Virus record (IMG/VR): IMGVR_UViG_3300027763_000039
Location: 1 to 64,000 of that record
From: a virus
Strand: one strand, 5' to 3'
Length of the DNA: 64,000 bases
The notes under the pieces were generated by a model. The model was not told the origin of the DNA and did no database searches. It saw only the letters and a list, made by a program, of their open reading frames with translations. Positions 27,930 through 33,418 of this stretch are shown here, piece by piece. Position 1 is the stretch's first letter; each line of letters opens with the position of its first letter. A program made the position numbers and the translations under genes.

Positions 27930-28963
27930 TTACATATCTTAGAAGTAGTTCCTATGGAACACATTCTATGTGTCCTCAACAATATTTTTTTGAATATATT
28001 CTTGGTTTAAGATCTCCATCTAATAAAAAAGCAGACAAAGGAACTATTTGCCATAAGGCTTTAGAAATCTTGGCATTTATTAAACTCAATACCCAAAACA
28101 ATAATCCAATTTTTGAGGATGATGTGGTGGGAAAAGTAGATATTAATAATTATAGCATTAAAAAAATAACTGATCAAGTATACGAATATTATACTTCTCA
28201 GTTCACTCATCATGTTTGGGAACCAAAAGATCATAAAGATTGTCATGCATGGATTAATAAAGCTTTAGAATATAATAAGGGTATGTTTGATCCTAGGAAT
28301 AGACATATAGTTCAGCCAGAACAACGCTTTGATCTTGAGATTAAGAAACCTTGGTCATCATACCGATATGAAACCAAAGATGGAGTCCTTGAAGGAAACC
28401 TTGCTATTAAAGGAACTATTGATCTTATTACTAAGGTAAATGATAACACCCTAGAAGTCATCGATTGGAAAACAGGACGAAGACTAGATTGGGCCACAGG
28501 AGAAGAAAAAACTCTAGAGAAACTTCAAAACGATCCCCAATTAAGGATATATCATTATGCAATTCAACATATGTATCCAGAGATCGAACATGTAATGATA
28601 TCTATTAATTTCATCAATGATGGTGGGGCATTTACTATTTGTTTTGATAAAACAGATTTATACAAAACAGAAATCATGTTGAAACAAAAATTTGAGACTA
28701 TAAAGAATACTCAAAAACCTCAGTTAAATAAAAGCTGGAAATGTAGTAAGCTTTGCCACTTTGGAAAAAGCACATTTGCTAATAGCCCAATAGAGCCGCT
28801 AACAGAATACAGAGACGGTCAACTAACAGCCAAAAACCAATGCATGACCAAATGTGAGCAAGTTAAACATGACATAGACACTACCGGAATGAAAGCAGTC
28901 ATTGACAAGTATCAGGCTCCCGGTTATAGTATAGGTCACTACAAGGCACCCGGCACCGTATAA
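27923..28963 (+). CDS. Cas4/AddB-like PD-(D/E)xK exonuclease with putative Fe-S cysteines; probable ATT start
   Basis: SSS...CP N-terminal motif, GTICHKALE, GTIDLI, IDWKTG, QLRIY, C-terminal CSKLC/CMTKC. The frame extends upstream of ATG 27968 to ATT 27923, 7 nt after AGGAG. Confidence 0.82.
   Translation: MIITYLRSSSYGTHSMCPQQYFFEYILGLRSPSNKKADKGTICHKALEILAFIKLNTQNNNPIFEDDVVGKVDINNYSIKKITDQVYEYYTSQFTHHVWEPKDHKDCHAWINKALEYNKGMFDPRNRHIVQPEQRFDLEIKKPWSSYRYETKDGVLEGNLAIKGTIDLITKVNDNTLEVIDWKTGRRLDWATGEEKTLEKLQNDPQLRIYHYAIQHMYPEIEHVMISINFINDGGAFTICFDKTDLYKTEIMLKQKFETIKNTQKPQLNKSWKCSKLCHFGKSTFANSPIEPLTEYRDGQLTAKNQCMTKCEQVKHDIDTTGMKAVIDKYQAPGYSIGHYKAPGTV
28902..28930 (+). promoter_or_regulatory. Sigma70-type promoter for dnaE, inside the 3' end of the nuclease gene
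   Basis: TTGACA-17 nt-TATAGT. Confidence 0.65.
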
Positions 28964-28999
28964 CATTTTTGGTTATAACAACGAAATAAGGAGAAAATT

Positions 29000-29060
29000 A
29001 GATATGGACATGACTAGAGGGTATGTGCCTCTGCATGTCCATTCTTAGGTGGGCTATGTA
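29000..29060 (+). other. Structured RNA/recoding element: two alternative hairpins around a 10-nt coding gap (29046-29055)
   Basis: Hairpin A spans 29000-29045 (~18 bp, including perfect ATGGACATG/CATGTCCAT). Hairpin B spans 29032-29060 (~11 bp, loop TCTTAG). Confidence 0.7.
29004..29048 (+). CDS. dnaE: DnaE piece 1: 14-codon N-terminal segment MDMTRGYVPLHVHS*
   Basis: TAAGGAG SD at 28987-28993; encodes the first PHP strand with the HxH metal ligands; ends at TAG 29046-29048; not in the ORF track. Confidence 0.85.
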   Translation: MDMTRGYVPLHVHS

Positions 29061-30897
29061 CTCACTTTTGGATGGACTATCGCAGCCAAGAACTATTGCT
29101 GAACGATGTCAAGAAATCGGAGCAACTTCTTGTGCATTAACTGATCATGGTAATATTGCTGGAGCAGTTAAGTTTTATACGGAAATGAAAAAGAAGGGAA
29201 TTAAGCCTATCCTGGGATGTGAGGTTTATCTTTGTGATCAAGATCCTAAGATTAAAACAAAAGAAAACAAAGACTTAACCCACTTTGTGATTCTAGCTAA
29301 GAATTATGAGGGGTGGAAGAGTCTTATTAGAATTGTCTCCGAATCCAATCAGCCAGATCATTTTTATCATAAGCCAAGACTAGATATAAACACTCTTGCA
29401 CAATATTGCAATAATAATATTATTGGATTTTGTGGTCATGCTGGATCTTATTTAGCAGATAGGATTACTAATAATAATCAATTGATCGGTGATTGGAGAA
29501 ATGTTGGGATTGACCAAATTGGTAAACTAAAGGATGTTTTTGGTACAGAGAATTTCTTTCTAGAAGCACAATTAATGGATTCGGTCAATTCTCCTATTCA
29601 GACACTTTTGACTGGTGCTATGAGAGATTTGGCCAAAATTACTAATACCAAAATCATTTCTACGCCAGACGCTCATTATTGCCGCAAGGAGGACGCTGTA
29701 GATCAAAGGGTGCTTCTCTGTAATAATTTAAAAACAACCTTCCCAGAGATCAGCAGGAAGATCAGTAACGATGAGGAGGTGCCTCTTGGTTGCTTTTTTA
29801 CATCTGACAACTTCCATATCCTATCTCCAGAAGAAATGGGTCATTTTCATACAGAAGAAGAGATGGAAAATACCAAGATAGTAGATGAATTATGTGAAAA
29901 CTATAATATCTTAGATAAACCACATTTACCTCCATTTTCTTGTCCTGACGGAGCTAATCCAGATGAATACCTAAGGCAATTATGTCGTAATGGTTGGAGA
30001 GATAAAATTGCTAATAATATAGATAAAGATACCCAAGAAGATTATGTGAATCGAATAAAGTATGAATTAGAGGTTCTACAAGGGGCTGATCTTTCTAGTT
30101 ACTTTTTAATTGTACAAGATATTGTTAACTATGTCAGGAAAAACAACTGGCTTCCTGGGCCGGGAAGAGGAAGTGCGGCTGGTTGTCTAGTCTCTTACCT
30201 GATTGGTATTACTAGTATTGATCCTATTAAGTATGGTTTATTATTTGACAGATTTTATAATGCTGGACGAAATAGTAAAGACCATATCTCTATGCCTGAT
30301 ATTGACGTAGACGTACCTATTAATAAGAGAGAAAATGTAATCGAATATATTAAGCAGTGTTATGGGGCTGATAAGGTTTCTCAAATGATTACATTTAATA
30401 CTATTAAGGGTCGTGGTGCTATTAAGGATGTATTAAGAGTTTATGGTAATATATCATTTGATGAAATGAATAAGATCACTAAAAGTATTCCAGATGAAGC
30501 TAAAATTGCCGACGATCTTCAAGAAATGAAAGAAGAGACTGGGGAAGCATCTATTATTCGGTGGGCATTAGAAAATGAGCCAGATAAACTGAAAGAATGG
30601 TGCTATATAGATGAAAAAAATGAATTACAAGGACCGCTTGCCAAAAGATTTGAACAGGCTATTAGATTAGAAGGAACTAAGTCTAATCAGTCCAAACATG
30701 CGGCTGGTATTGCTATTAGTTCTAAACCATTAAATACATTGTGTCCTATGGTGTACGATTCAAAAAATGATCAGCTTATAGCTGGTATGGAAATGCAAGA
30801 TCTAGAAGCGTTAGGCATTATCAAATTTGATATTCTTGGCGTGGCAATGTTAGATAAAATTATGACTATCCAAGACATCTTATCAAAAGGAGATTAA
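29056..30897 (+). CDS. dnaE: DnaE piece 2: DNA polymerase III alpha, PHP + palm/thumb (613 aa)
   Basis: YSLLDG, LTDHGN, GIKPILGCE, DAHY, GPGRGSAAG, SMPDIDVD, HAAG, KFDILG. Confidence 0.93.
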   Translation: MYSLLDGLSQPRTIAERCQEIGATSCALTDHGNIAGAVKFYTEMKKKGIKPILGCEVYLCDQDPKIKTKENKDLTHFVILAKNYEGWKSLIRIVSESNQPDHFYHKPRLDINTLAQYCNNNIIGFCGHAGSYLADRITNNNQLIGDWRNVGIDQIGKLKDVFGTENFFLEAQLMDSVNSPIQTLLTGAMRDLAKITNTKIISTPDAHYCRKEDAVDQRVLLCNNLKTTFPEISRKISNDEEVPLGCFFTSDNFHILSPEEMGHFHTEEEMENTKIVDELCENYNILDKPHLPPFSCPDGANPDEYLRQLCRNGWRDKIANNIDKDTQEDYVNRIKYELEVLQGADLSSYFLIVQDIVNYVRKNNWLPGPGRGSAAGCLVSYLIGITSIDPIKYGLLFDRFYNAGRNSKDHISMPDIDVDVPINKRENVIEYIKQCYGADKVSQMITFNTIKGRGAIKDVLRVYGNISFDEMNKITKSIPDEAKIADDLQEMKEETGEASIIRWALENEPDKLKEWCYIDEKNELQGPLAKRFEQAIRLEGTKSNQSKHAAGIAISSKPLNTLCPMVYDSKNDQLIAGMEMQDLEALGIIKFDILGVAMLDKIMTIQDILSKGD

Positions 30898-30898
30898 T

Positions 30899-31096
30899 AT
30901 GGCAATGCAAAAGTTTATGGATATAGCAATCGGGACTGTTTTTAAGCATGAAGGTAATGAGTATCGAAAAATCCCAGAAGAAAGAATCAGTTGCTGTTCG
31001 GCCATTAATGCTCAAGGAGTACATAATGCCCAGCAAAGAATTCAAGTTTTGCCACTAGTAGAAGTCGAAGTCCTAGGAGATAACACTCAAGCATGA
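30899..31096 (+). CDS. Small hypothetical protein between the dnaE halves
   Basis: AAGGAG SD within the end of dnaE; ATGA overlap with the exonuclease gene. Confidence 0.65.
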   Translation: MAMQKFMDIAIGTVFKHEGNEYRKIPEERISCCSAINAQGVHNAQQRIQVLPLVEVEVLGDNTQA

Positions 31097-31794
31097 TCAA
31101 CTATAATAAAATTTGCGTTTTCGATTTTGAAACAGATGGTTCTGATCCTAAGTCTTGTAGTCCAGTACAAATTGCAGCCATAATTATTGATCCATTAAAA
31201 CTGGAAATTGTTCCCAATTCTGAATTCAACATCTTTTTTAAACCAGAGGTATTGGCAAATGATGAACAATATCAATATACTACAGACATTTTAGATTTTC
31301 ATGCCAAGGTAAGAGGTTCTTCTAAAGAAGCTATTCTAGAAGAATGGAAGAAGTACCCTGCTCAAGATCAGTCTTGGAAATTGTTTACAAACTATCTAAC
31401 AATGCATCATACCAGATCCAGCAAAAAGAGCCAGTTTAGTGCTCCTATTGCTGCTGGTTACAATATCAATAGATTTGACTTGCCAATTATTGATAGGTTG
31501 AGTCGTAAATATGGTAATACGAATAAGGAAGAAAGAAGCGATATTTTTTATCCAAGAGACGTATTAGATATTATGAACCTAGTCTTCTATTGGTTTGAAA
31601 ACAATGGAGATCTCAAAAATCTTTCCCTGGACACTCTTAGAGATTATCTGGGCATAAATAAAGAGGGTGCTCATGATGCTCTAAAAGATGTTAAAGATTG
31701 TGCAGAAATTCTGATTCGTTTTATGAGACTACATCGTAACCTAGGAAATAAGATTAAGTTTAAGGACTCATTTCAGTCACCATCACATGTCTAA
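31093..31794 (+). CDS. DEDDh 3'-5' exonuclease (DnaQ/epsilon-like)
   Basis: VFDFET, AGYNINRFD, AHDALKD. Confidence 0.92.
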   Translation: MINYNKICVFDFETDGSDPKSCSPVQIAAIIIDPLKLEIVPNSEFNIFFKPEVLANDEQYQYTTDILDFHAKVRGSSKEAILEEWKKYPAQDQSWKLFTNYLTMHHTRSSKKSQFSAPIAAGYNINRFDLPIIDRLSRKYGNTNKEERSDIFYPRDVLDIMNLVFYWFENNGDLKNLSLDTLRDYLGINKEGAHDALKDVKDCAEILIRFMRLHRNLGNKIKFKDSFQSPSHV

Positions 31795-33418
31795 AAAATT
31801 TCAATACAGTTGCGGATGTTCTTTTGACATTATATCTGAACATGACGATAAGGATAGAATGACTCTTAAATTTAATCCTAAAATAGAAGAGATTAGTTTA
31901 GAGTGTCAAAAAACTTGGGACCTAATTTCAGACGGAAATACTAAAGGGTGTTTCCAGTTGGAGTCTAGGCTTGGTAAGTCTATGGCTAAAAAACTAAAGC
32001 CAGAAAATATCGAACAGCTATCTGCCTTAATTAGTATTATGAGGCCGGGTTGTCTTGAAGCTTTTAGAGATGGCAAATCAGTTTCTAACCATTTTATAGA
32101 TAAAAAGAATGGCCAGGAATCTGTAGATTATTATCATCCCTCTTTAGAGCCTATTCTAAAGGGAACATATGGTGAAATGATTTACCAAGAACAGGCTATG
32201 GAAATTGCTAAAATCGTAGCTGGTTTTGATCTTCAAGAAGCAGACATGTTAAGAAAAGCTATTGGTAAGAAAAAACCAGAAGAGATGGCTAAGATTAAGA
32301 TTAAATTTTTAGAAGGCACAGAAAAAGTTGGTACAGTAGCTACTTCTCAAGCAGAAGAAATTTTCGGCTGGATTGAAAAGTCCCAGAGATATTCTTTTAA
32401 TAAATCCCACGCTGTTAGTTATGCTATTAATAGTTATTTATCAGCTTATACCAAGGCTCATTTTCCCAAAATATTTTTTGCTGCATATTTAAGATTTGCA
32501 AAAGATAAAATTGATCCTAAGGCAGAAATTAAAGAATTGGTACAAAACGCTAATGAAATGGATGTTCCTGTTTGTATACCAGATATTAGAAACTTAAATC
32601 AACTATTCATTCTTAAGAATAACAAGATTTACTTTGGACTAACAGACATCAAGGGTTTTGGACAGTCCGTTTTTGACAAATTAGTTAAACTCAAAGAAGA
32701 TAAGAAGCTAGATTTTGATACCATGAACTGGATAGAAATGCTGACTACGGTTTTGATCAATATCAACTCTACATCTGCTAAAGCATTAATCCAAAGTGGA
32801 GCAATGTCATATTTGGGTAAGAATAGAGTGGCTATGTTATTCGAATTTGGTTTAGTCTCAGAATTAACCAAGAAGGAATCAGACTTCATTATAGCTAATC
32901 TCTATAAATATAAATCAATAGGAGATGCTCTTCATGATCTATATCATAATGGAAAATCCAATAAGAATAGAAAAGCAATTATTCTAGATTTAATTAATAG
33001 CTATAATAAGCCTCCATATTCTTTAGAAGATAATCCAGATTGGATTGCTGATGCGGAAGATGCATTTTTAGGGTGTAGTATAACCTGTTCTAAAGTTGAT
33101 ATGTATGATATTACTATGACTAATACAACCTGTAAAGACTTTAAAAACACCACGCTTAAAGATAATATTCTCTTGTGTGGAGAAATTGAGAGTGTGGGTG
33201 TTACTAAAACTAAATCTGGCAAGACACCGGGTCAAGAAATGGCATTTGTTACTATGAGCGATGGCACAGGAGTAATAGATTCTGTTGTTTTCTTTCCAGA
33301 AGCCTATAAGGCTTATCGAAATATTTTATTTGATGGCAATGTGATCATAGTAAAAGGTAATAGAGCCAAGTCTGGCGATTCACTAATTGTAGAAAAGACG
33401 TATATTCCTAAAACTTGA
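31787..33418 (+). CDS. dnaE: DnaE piece 3: DNA polymerase III alpha C-terminal part (fingers, HhH, OB fold)
   Basis: GCFQLES, MRPG, YQEQAM, LRKAIGKKK, YSFNKSHA, PDI, GLTDIKGFG, MAFVTMSDGTG. Confidence 0.93.
   Translation: MSKKFQYSCGCSFDIISEHDDKDRMTLKFNPKIEEISLECQKTWDLISDGNTKGCFQLESRLGKSMAKKLKPENIEQLSALISIMRPGCLEAFRDGKSVSNHFIDKKNGQESVDYYHPSLEPILKGTYGEMIYQEQAMEIAKIVAGFDLQEADMLRKAIGKKKPEEMAKIKIKFLEGTEKVGTVATSQAEEIFGWIEKSQRYSFNKSHAVSYAINSYLSAYTKAHFPKIFFAAYLRFAKDKIDPKAEIKELVQNANEMDVPVCIPDIRNLNQLFILKNNKIYFGLTDIKGFGQSVFDKLVKLKEDKKLDFDTMNWIEMLTTVLININSTSAKALIQSGAMSYLGKNRVAMLFEFGLVSELTKKESDFIIANLYKYKSIGDALHDLYHNGKSNKNRKAIILDLINSYNKPPYSLEDNPDWIADAEDAFLGCSITCSKVDMYDITMTNTTCKDFKNTTLKDNILLCGEIESVGVTKTKSGKTPGQEMAFVTMSDGTGVIDSVVFFPEAYKAYRNILFDGNVIIVKGNRAKSGDSLIVEKTYIPKT

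Follow-up and report, generated by a model that had tools for sequence, protein, structure and literature searches.

A short stop-containing gap in the PHP motif of a phage dnaE gene: a probable case of programmed translational bypassing

The interrupted dnaE gene and its natural variants

The stretch of DNA analysed here (the window, 64,000 nucleotides, positions 1 to 64,000 of IMG/VR virus record IMGVR_UViG_3300027763_000039) belongs to the 108,316 bp genome of an uncultured phage and carries a dnaE gene whose reading frame is broken close to its 5′ end. The gene opens at ATG 29004 with a leader open reading frame (ORF) whose translation, M D M T R G Y V P L H V H S, ends inside the metal-binding motif of the PHP domain and is followed at once by a stop codon; the rest of the motif, M-Y-S-L-L-D-G, resumes at 29056 in the +1 frame relative to the leader (Table 1). 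Excision of the intervening 10 nt gives H-V-H-S-M-Y-S-L-L-D-G, the normal DnaE motif, and conserved residues of the leader double as PHP ligands. An earlier sequence-only reading of the window had pointed to a strong Shine-Dalgarno (SD) sequence before the ATG, an exact 10-nt gap starting with a stop codon, restoration of the DnaE signature when the gap is removed and a domain that does not look decayed. All four observations were borne out: the SD sequence is AAGGAG, the gap reads as described, the remainder of the gene is intact with the gap itself conserved among relatives, and the spacing across the motif is invariant, with no extra bases at the break point in any of the 58 ungapped relatives among the first 80 loci and no indel across the motif when an ungapped relative is aligned with Thermus DnaE (2HPI). 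With a gap of 10 nt the downstream ORF of the window is out of frame with the stop codon, and the +1 frame is open across the gap in the window's own sequence.

Table 1. Features at the 5′ end of dnaE in the window and in the remainder of the polymerase module
Feature	Position	Strand	Remarks
SD sequence of the leader (AAGGAG)	28988-28993	+	10 nt upstream of the start codon
Leader ORF, first PHP strand (Y-V-P-L-H-V-H-S)	29004-29045	+	14 codons; amino acids kept despite synonymous changes
Hairpin SL1	29004-29042	+	dG -20.0 kcal/mol, z -4.0
SL1 basal stem	29004-29012 with 29034-29042	+	start and two codons paired with the H-V-H codons
SL1 apical stem	29016-29020 with 29028-29032	+	
Putative take-off codon UCU (Ser14)	29043-29045	+	UCU, UCC or UCG in all gapped variants
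Non-coding gap, 10 nt	29046-29055	+	stop UAG (29046-29048) plus 7 nt
Hairpin SL2	29047-29067	+	dG -7.3 kcal/mol, z -2.1
SL2 5′ arm	29047-29053	+	stop and gap
SL2 loop	29054-29060	+	
SL2 3′ arm	29061-29067	+	
Putative landing triplet GCU	29053-29055	+	last triplet of the gap; matches UCU at two of three positions
Resume codon AUG and rest of DnaE N-half (PHP and palm)	29056-30897	+	613 codons
Rest of the split polymerase module	30899-33418	+	65-aa ORF, DnaQ-like exonuclease, DnaE C-half; context, outside the hop

The sequence-only reading had suggested looking for a stop plus a short insert at the same codon in the dnaE 5′ ends of related phages, and this is what was found. A protein-guided scan of viral contigs yielded 80 relatives (58-98% identity), 22 of which are broken at this codon, and pattern scans of viral and metagenome contigs raised the total to 56 distinct variants, drawn from many metagenomes, once false positives had been removed (bacterial dnaE genes with an out-of-frame CAT-TCA-TAA or CAT-TCA-TAG, and unrelated genes). 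Six independent contigs, 96-98% identical to the window, carry the same 10 nt, and DnaE identity among the gapped genes extends down to 62.5% with a median of 70%. The number of variants and this degree of divergence exclude an assembly error or a recent pseudogene; on these comparative grounds the break is real and not an artefact or a sign of decay.

Counting the stop codon, gap length among the 56 variants is 6 nt (one), 7 nt (one), 8 nt (three), 9 nt (nine), 10 nt (20), 11 nt (18), 12 nt (three) or 14 nt (one), so that every reading frame is represented and no more than 13 of the 56 gaps are divisible by three. Two genes whose proteins are 82.8% identical (L102 and L111) have gaps of 11 and 12 nt respectively, which indicates that 1-base indels within the gap are tolerated between close relatives. 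From the range of lengths, the scarcity of multiples of three and this pair it follows that the gap is not read in triplets. A stop codon stands directly after the take-off codon in all 56 variants (TAA in 29, TAG in 27) and the codon before it always specifies Ser (UCU 38, UCC 17, UCG 1); at the same position ungapped genes use AGY, UCR and ACN as well. TGA is never the stop after the take-off codon in these variants, which may reflect pairing of the stop with a Leu codon in the downstream hairpin described below, or which release factor acts there.

The last triplet of the gap is itself a Ser codon in 38 of 56 variants (UCU 22, UCA 12, UCC 3, UCG 1) and has C at its centre in 55. A UCG take-off codon is found once (L159, 7-nt gap), and there the gap also ends in UCG; the 6-nt variant (L060) reads UCU-UAA-UCU. 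To judge from these sequences, the gap closes with what resembles a landing site. The codon that follows is CAY or ATG (GAA once) and leads into Y/F-S-L-L-D-G; the residue at this position in ungapped genes is mostly the same (His, Met and also Thr). The GAA comes from L154/L173 (viral contigs), which has the Val codon GTT and an in-frame 9-nt gap that ends in TTT.

The last eight residues of the leader, Y-x-P-L-H-(V/C)-H-S, are kept throughout apart from three variants with F or S at the Y or P, yet across the 56 variants Leu is written with five codons and His with both of its codons. Codons just 3′ of the gap show the same pattern, with residues kept right up to the gap edge. As the residues are retained while the codons vary, the leader and the flanking codons must be translated.

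The DnaE of this phage is also divided at a second place, with no intein, into two genes: the N-half (PHP, palm) ends at 30897 and the C-half (fingers, HhH, OB) occupies 31787-33418, with a 65-aa ORF matching no family and the DnaQ-like exonuclease (31093-31794) lying between them. The N-half was matched as a separate ORF of about 610 aa in 80 of 80 relatives. The contig of one relative (L002, DnaE 96% identical) is 108,770 bp long, from which the genome of the window is probably near complete; there is no terminal repeat at its contig ends. A search of 28800-29300 against Rfam found no known RNA family, and a screen of the whole genome for other hop-like junctions produced no convincing one. 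Cultured phages gave no nucleotide match and no protein match above 34% identity, so there is no isolate in which to test the site.

Hairpins around the break

The RNA around the break can fold into two hairpins, SL1 and SL2, which the sequence-only reading had missed. The segment 29002-29073 of the window folds at -27.9 kcal/mol (z -3.76), and SL1 and SL2 form in nearly all variants with a total energy of -22 to -31 kcal/mol. The basal helix of SL1, which involves the start codon, is 99.1% paired in alignment A1. At one of its pairs the counts are GC 28, AU 18 and GU 3, with no mismatch, and a second pair is altered on both sides in a variant that starts with GTG. Leaders with H-C-H in place of H-V-H (L155, L275, L160 and L218) have other arm sequences and fold into the same SL1, and altogether the fold is common to four sequence families, three of them beyond the main one. 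The mean minimum free energy of the leader is -17.9 kcal/mol in gapped genes (39 distinct) as against -1.1 kcal/mol in ungapped genes (37 distinct), the latter being less structured than shuffled controls; neither SL1 nor SL2 was found in the ungapped relatives.

SL2 begins at the first base of the stop codon or one base later. Its loop holds the landing triplet and the resume codon, and its 3′ arm consists of the Tyr-Ser-Leu codons, whose third positions covary with the gap: U-A 22, A-U 4 and C-G 3 at Ser, G-C 14 and A-U 10 at Tyr, A-U 24 and U-A 10 at Leu. Mean dG is -5.8 kcal/mol for the native hairpins, -2.7 kcal/mol when each gap is joined to foreign Ser-Leu codons and -1.35 kcal/mol when the gap is shuffled. 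Only the 6-nt variant has no SL2. In the 7-nt variant (L159, L164 and L168) the leader starts with TTG and the downstream hairpin is unlike the common SL2. Taken over the alignments, both hairpins keep their pairing through compensatory changes.

These data also bear on the AGGTG of the gap, which the sequence-only reading had taken for an anti-SD match placed to serve AUG 29056. It changes in step with the Ser-Leu codons that it pairs with, the 5′ arm of SL2 becoming TAGAGA, TAGCGA or TAACGA where those codons change. A role as an SD site was rejected on this ground, and because of the covariation AGGTG is better read as the 5′ arm of the hairpin.

The neighbouring HNH endonuclease gene

The gapped genes do not form a single clade. 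Mapped on a maximum-likelihood tree built from 79 DnaE N-halves, the gapped state requires 17 changes, at least 12 of which are forced by well-supported branches; the sister of the window's clade is L003, an ungapped gene with about 84% identity. All gapped genes nevertheless have a homologous unit in common, in which a spacer carrying a strong ribosome-binding site is followed by the leader with SL1 and then by the gap. In most ungapped genes the start instead forms an ATGA overlap with an upstream nuclease gene, and a few follow a short spacer. The three ungapped 5′ ends at L003 2966-3027, L008 2468-2530 and L020 2970-3030 gave z values of +1.3 to +1.7 relative to shuffled sequences; the L003 and L020 starts overlap the stop codon of an upstream PD-(D/E)XK nuclease gene (ATGA) and that of L008 comes after a short spacer. 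The cassette has therefore exchanged an open, translationally coupled start for one hidden in a hairpin of about -18 to -20 kcal/mol.

Sixteen gapped loci have an HNH endonuclease gene, intact or decayed, directly beside the leader, as against 0 of 60 ungapped loci. About 240 codons long, the gene lies between the upstream nuclease gene and the leader, ends with a stop codon within the 5′ arm of SL1, and encodes a protein that is HNH/endonuclease VII-like in its C-terminal part and has a helix-turn-helix region at the N-terminus. The gene is full length in L031 (2200-2961), L038, L093, L112 and L130 and their duplicates, and is represented in the remaining loci of the 16 by remnants of 36-80 codons. 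The protein matches generic PHROG families of HNH proteins and endonuclease VII, and its best phage matches are HNH genes of Streptomyces phages (35-42% identity). No homologue of it is present in the 108,316 bp genome of the window. The ribosome-binding region of the window still shares 19 identical bases with the 3′ terminus of the endonuclease gene of L031, and the SD stretch corresponds to the 3′ end of the HNH gene in those relatives that have it. From these sequence relationships we propose that the leader and gap form a cassette that is the footprint of an HNH homing-endonuclease element, this phage having lost the nuclease. The scattered distribution may be due to recent homing or to old alleles reshuffled by recombination.

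Other HNH-like genes, 33-57% identical to the one adjoining the leader, occur 1-2 kb upstream of dnaE whether or not the locus is gapped (L036 801-1157; L006, L007, L049, L050, L102, L134, L139 and L144). One of them occurs in a relative 96% identical to the window; the window genome is without any. The replication module looks like a favoured site for free-standing endonuclease genes.

Interpretation and comparison with known systems

We interpret the site as one of programmed translational bypassing, a short and independent counterpart of the T4 gene 60/MobA cassette, and on the comparative evidence put the probability of this at about 0.78. According to this interpretation the ribosome would start at AUG 29004, make the 14-residue peptide and pause with peptidyl-tRNA-Ser on UCU (29043-45) and UAG in the A site. 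Termination would not take place; the tRNA would release its codon, the ribosome would slide over 10 nt, and the tRNA would re-pair with the near-cognate GCU (29053-55) so that decoding could resume at AUG 29056, the product being one polypeptide with H-V-H-S-M-Y-S-L-L-D-G. Such a hop from UCU to GCU with an imperfect landing match was one of four models in the sequence-only reading, and is the one favoured by the comparative evidence. By analogy with the take-off stem-loop of T4 gene 60, SL2 could arise at the A site or close to it, where it could compete with the release factor. The 3′ arm of SL1 (positions -9 to -1) would be held inside the ribosome at take-off and would zip up as the ribosome advances; with the arm so placed SL1 could zip only with forward movement, which would favour a forward slide, and the sliding distance, being roughly the length of the SL1 stem, would be consistent with zipping. 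By analogy with MobA and gene 60, the gap would shield the dnaE gene that carries it from the nuclease. Bypassing in T4 gene 60 depends on a signal from a longer nascent peptide; with a chain of only 14 residues a signal of that type is unlikely here, and the short nascent chain is both the main mechanistic difference and the main reason for doubt about the efficiency of the hop.

Several points weigh against bypassing. The nascent chain has 14 residues and short peptidyl-tRNAs tend to drop off. The case for the hop is a comparative one throughout, and the 56 variants are akin to each other, so that their counts are not counts of independent events. The landing triplet of the window matches UCU at two of its three positions, 18 of the 56 variants land on ACU, GCY or UUU, and the variant with UUU followed by GAA (L154/L173) fits the landing rule poorly; as it has GTG in frame directly after the stop, this lineage may use a different route. 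AUG 29056 is preceded by a purine-rich stretch, and with an AUG so placed as the resume codon re-initiation could also occur in this phage. Finally, the 108,316 bp genome contains no tRNA genes.

Re-initiation is also the basis of an alternative already listed in the sequence-only reading, in which translation stops at UAG 29046 and the same or a fresh ribosome starts at AUG 29056 to give two polypeptides, the 14-residue peptide either completing the PHP barrel in trans or being dispensable. In its favour, AUG occupies the resume position in the window and in its close clade, after AGGTGG, and GTG is in frame in the 9- and 12-nt gaps of other variants. It carries over poorly to the family, because 22 among the first 50 variants lack an ATG, GTG or TTG in frame ahead of the Tyr codon (most resume at CAY) and in the 10- and 11-nt classes the GTG of the gap stands in another frame. 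Moreover, the purine-rich stretch behaves as one arm of a hairpin, changing with its partner, and is missing from variants with other Ser-Leu codons, the PHP ligand residues of the leader are under purifying selection, and the first PHP strand sits in the core of the barrel, so we consider two polypeptides unlikely. A related proposal would make the leader a regulatory upstream ORF left by the mobile element, with the polymerase lacking its first PHP strand and starting at 29056 or downstream. SL1 sequesters the start codon, as regulatory leaders often do, and some DnaE PHP domains have lost metal ligands; but the PHP residues of the leader are invariant while its codons vary, x-Y/F-S-L-L-D-G is conserved right to the gap edge and many variants have no start codon, which makes this very unlikely.

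The same low standing is given to conventional recoding that differs by lineage, with a +1 shift here (adding R-W-A), a -1 shift where the gap is 8 or 11 nt and readthrough where it is 6, 9 or 12 nt. The open +1 frame over the gap of the window and the plausibly shift-prone context of UCU plus a stop speak for it, and the sequence-only reading had included the +1 frameshift among its models. As a general explanation it fails, with gaps in all three frames and TGA in the required +1 frame within three 10-nt gaps (L088, L093 and L105); three mechanisms would be needed in relatives as close as L102 and L111, two to four extra residues would be left in the motif at a point where spacing is invariant (58 ungapped relatives, solved structures), and the Ser-like last triplet would go unexplained. 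Stop-codon reassignment or simple readthrough was rejected, only 13 of 56 gaps being in frame. RNA excision, the fourth of the earlier models, found no support: gaps of 6-14 nt that start in a stem and finish in a loop match no known system. An archaeal-type bulge-helix-bulge micro-intron was rejected because the 5′ end of the gap lies in a stem and its 3′ end in a loop, and further because gaps go down to 6 nt and the ribosome-binding sites are of bacterial type. An assembly or sequencing artefact or a decaying pseudogene has a negligible chance of being right: the broken frame is all that speaks for it, whereas the same gap recurs in six independent contigs and 56 homologous variants, the rest of the gene is intact and conserved, and both hairpins covary. 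Of the sequence-only reading as a whole, bypass or recoding as the general explanation is supported, and the covarying hairpins, the patchy phylogeny and the link to an HNH homing endonuclease are what it missed.

Taking bypassing as the preferred interpretation, we lean, with less assurance, towards a wider proposal, that the variants make up a natural family of very short stop-hops over 6-14 nt, programmed by RNA alone, that evolved independently of gene 60 as an HNH immunity patch in dnaE. The family would include in-frame hops of 6, 9 and 12 nt; SL1 would hide the start codon and zip up behind the ribosome, and the loop of SL2 would present the landing codon.

To our knowledge bypassing has been shown experimentally only for T4 gene 60 and in yeast mitochondria, with supporting data for phage Hau3. 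The sequence-only reading knew of no description of such an event for a phage DnaE, and our literature search likewise found no published account of a dnaE bypass. If the interpretation is right, dnaE provides a second phage system, in another gene, with a much shorter gap and almost no nascent peptide. The 56 variants amount to natural ‘mutants’ that differ in gap length, frame, landing codon and both hairpins, and so offer a comparative data set on the minimal needs of ribosome sliding, on mRNA refolding as its driver and on the choice of landing site. There is a practical side for annotation: automated gene prediction will cut short or divide the sole replicative polymerase that these phages have. 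The findings lend support to the view that a homing endonuclease can invade an essential gene at its most conserved motifs by bringing a translational patch with it; ‘endonuclease plus bypass’ would then be a recurrent solution and not a one-off.

Among known systems the byps of Magnusiomyces capitatus, as described in PMC7026636, are mitochondrial, 27-55 nt long, numerous in the genome and have an unused codon in the A site, whereas here there is a single site in a phage gene. Closer in size is the terminase gene of the Streptomyces phage Hau3. As in dnaE, the inserts are short (10 nt) and interrupt a gene essential to the phage, a stem-loop is proposed on the 5′ side, a local fold draws the landing codon near, and the conserved protein is restored at the junction (PMC10732093). 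The Hau3 junction peptide was found by mass spectrometry in Escherichia coli, the bypass itself being proposed (PMC10732093). Its A-site codon is the rare sense codon UUA, with sensing of host tRNA supply as the proposed function, while in dnaE it is a stop; the dnaE site further differs in lying at codon 14 and in belonging to a cassette tied to a homing endonuclease. In the stop hops of E. coli the peptidyl-tRNA re-pairs with a matching codon a few nt past the stop (Weiss et al., 1987, as cited in PMC5009743), and the 6-nt dnaE variant has exactly this form. Those hops were engineered or of low efficiency, whereas the dnaE arrangement is conserved in nature and has dedicated hairpins. A review of recoding published in 2016 noted that shorter natural counterparts had long been expected, no natural in-frame stop hop being known at the time (PMC5009743).

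The closest parallel is T4 gene 60 with its MobA element. In gene 60 a stop codon comes after the take-off codon, a take-off stem-loop forms in the A site, and mRNA refolding upstream impedes sliding backwards (PMC7026636). The two systems share a sense take-off codon followed by a stop, a stem-loop beginning at the take-off or stop codon (PMC7026636; 10.1101/2022.08.31.505936), a second, 5′ stem-loop able to refold behind the ribosome, a landing triplet (putative in dnaE) resembling the take-off codon, and a gap placed within a conserved metal-binding motif of a replication enzyme; in both the upstream HNH gene is often decayed or lost while the gap stays, with a patchy distribution of multiple origin on the host-gene tree. 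They differ in the gene (the PHP domain of dnaE here, the Toprim domain of a topoisomerase in T4), gap length (6-14 nt against 50), take-off codon (Ser UCN against Gly GGA) and nascent chain (13-15 residues against 46), and in that the 5′ hairpin of dnaE includes the start codon and its landing triplet often matches at only two of three positions. The dnaE cassette is not visibly homologous to gene 60, the HNH protein having been set against generic families and not MobA itself. The MobA element with the gene 60 bypass is described as undergoing repeated insertion and decay of the nuclease, with the bypass kept and the carrier protected from nicking (10.1101/2022.08.31.505936), and by analogy the pattern of HNH genes and gaps around dnaE appears to mirror that life cycle; for each of the gene 60 RNA elements named above the dnaE cassette has a counterpart.

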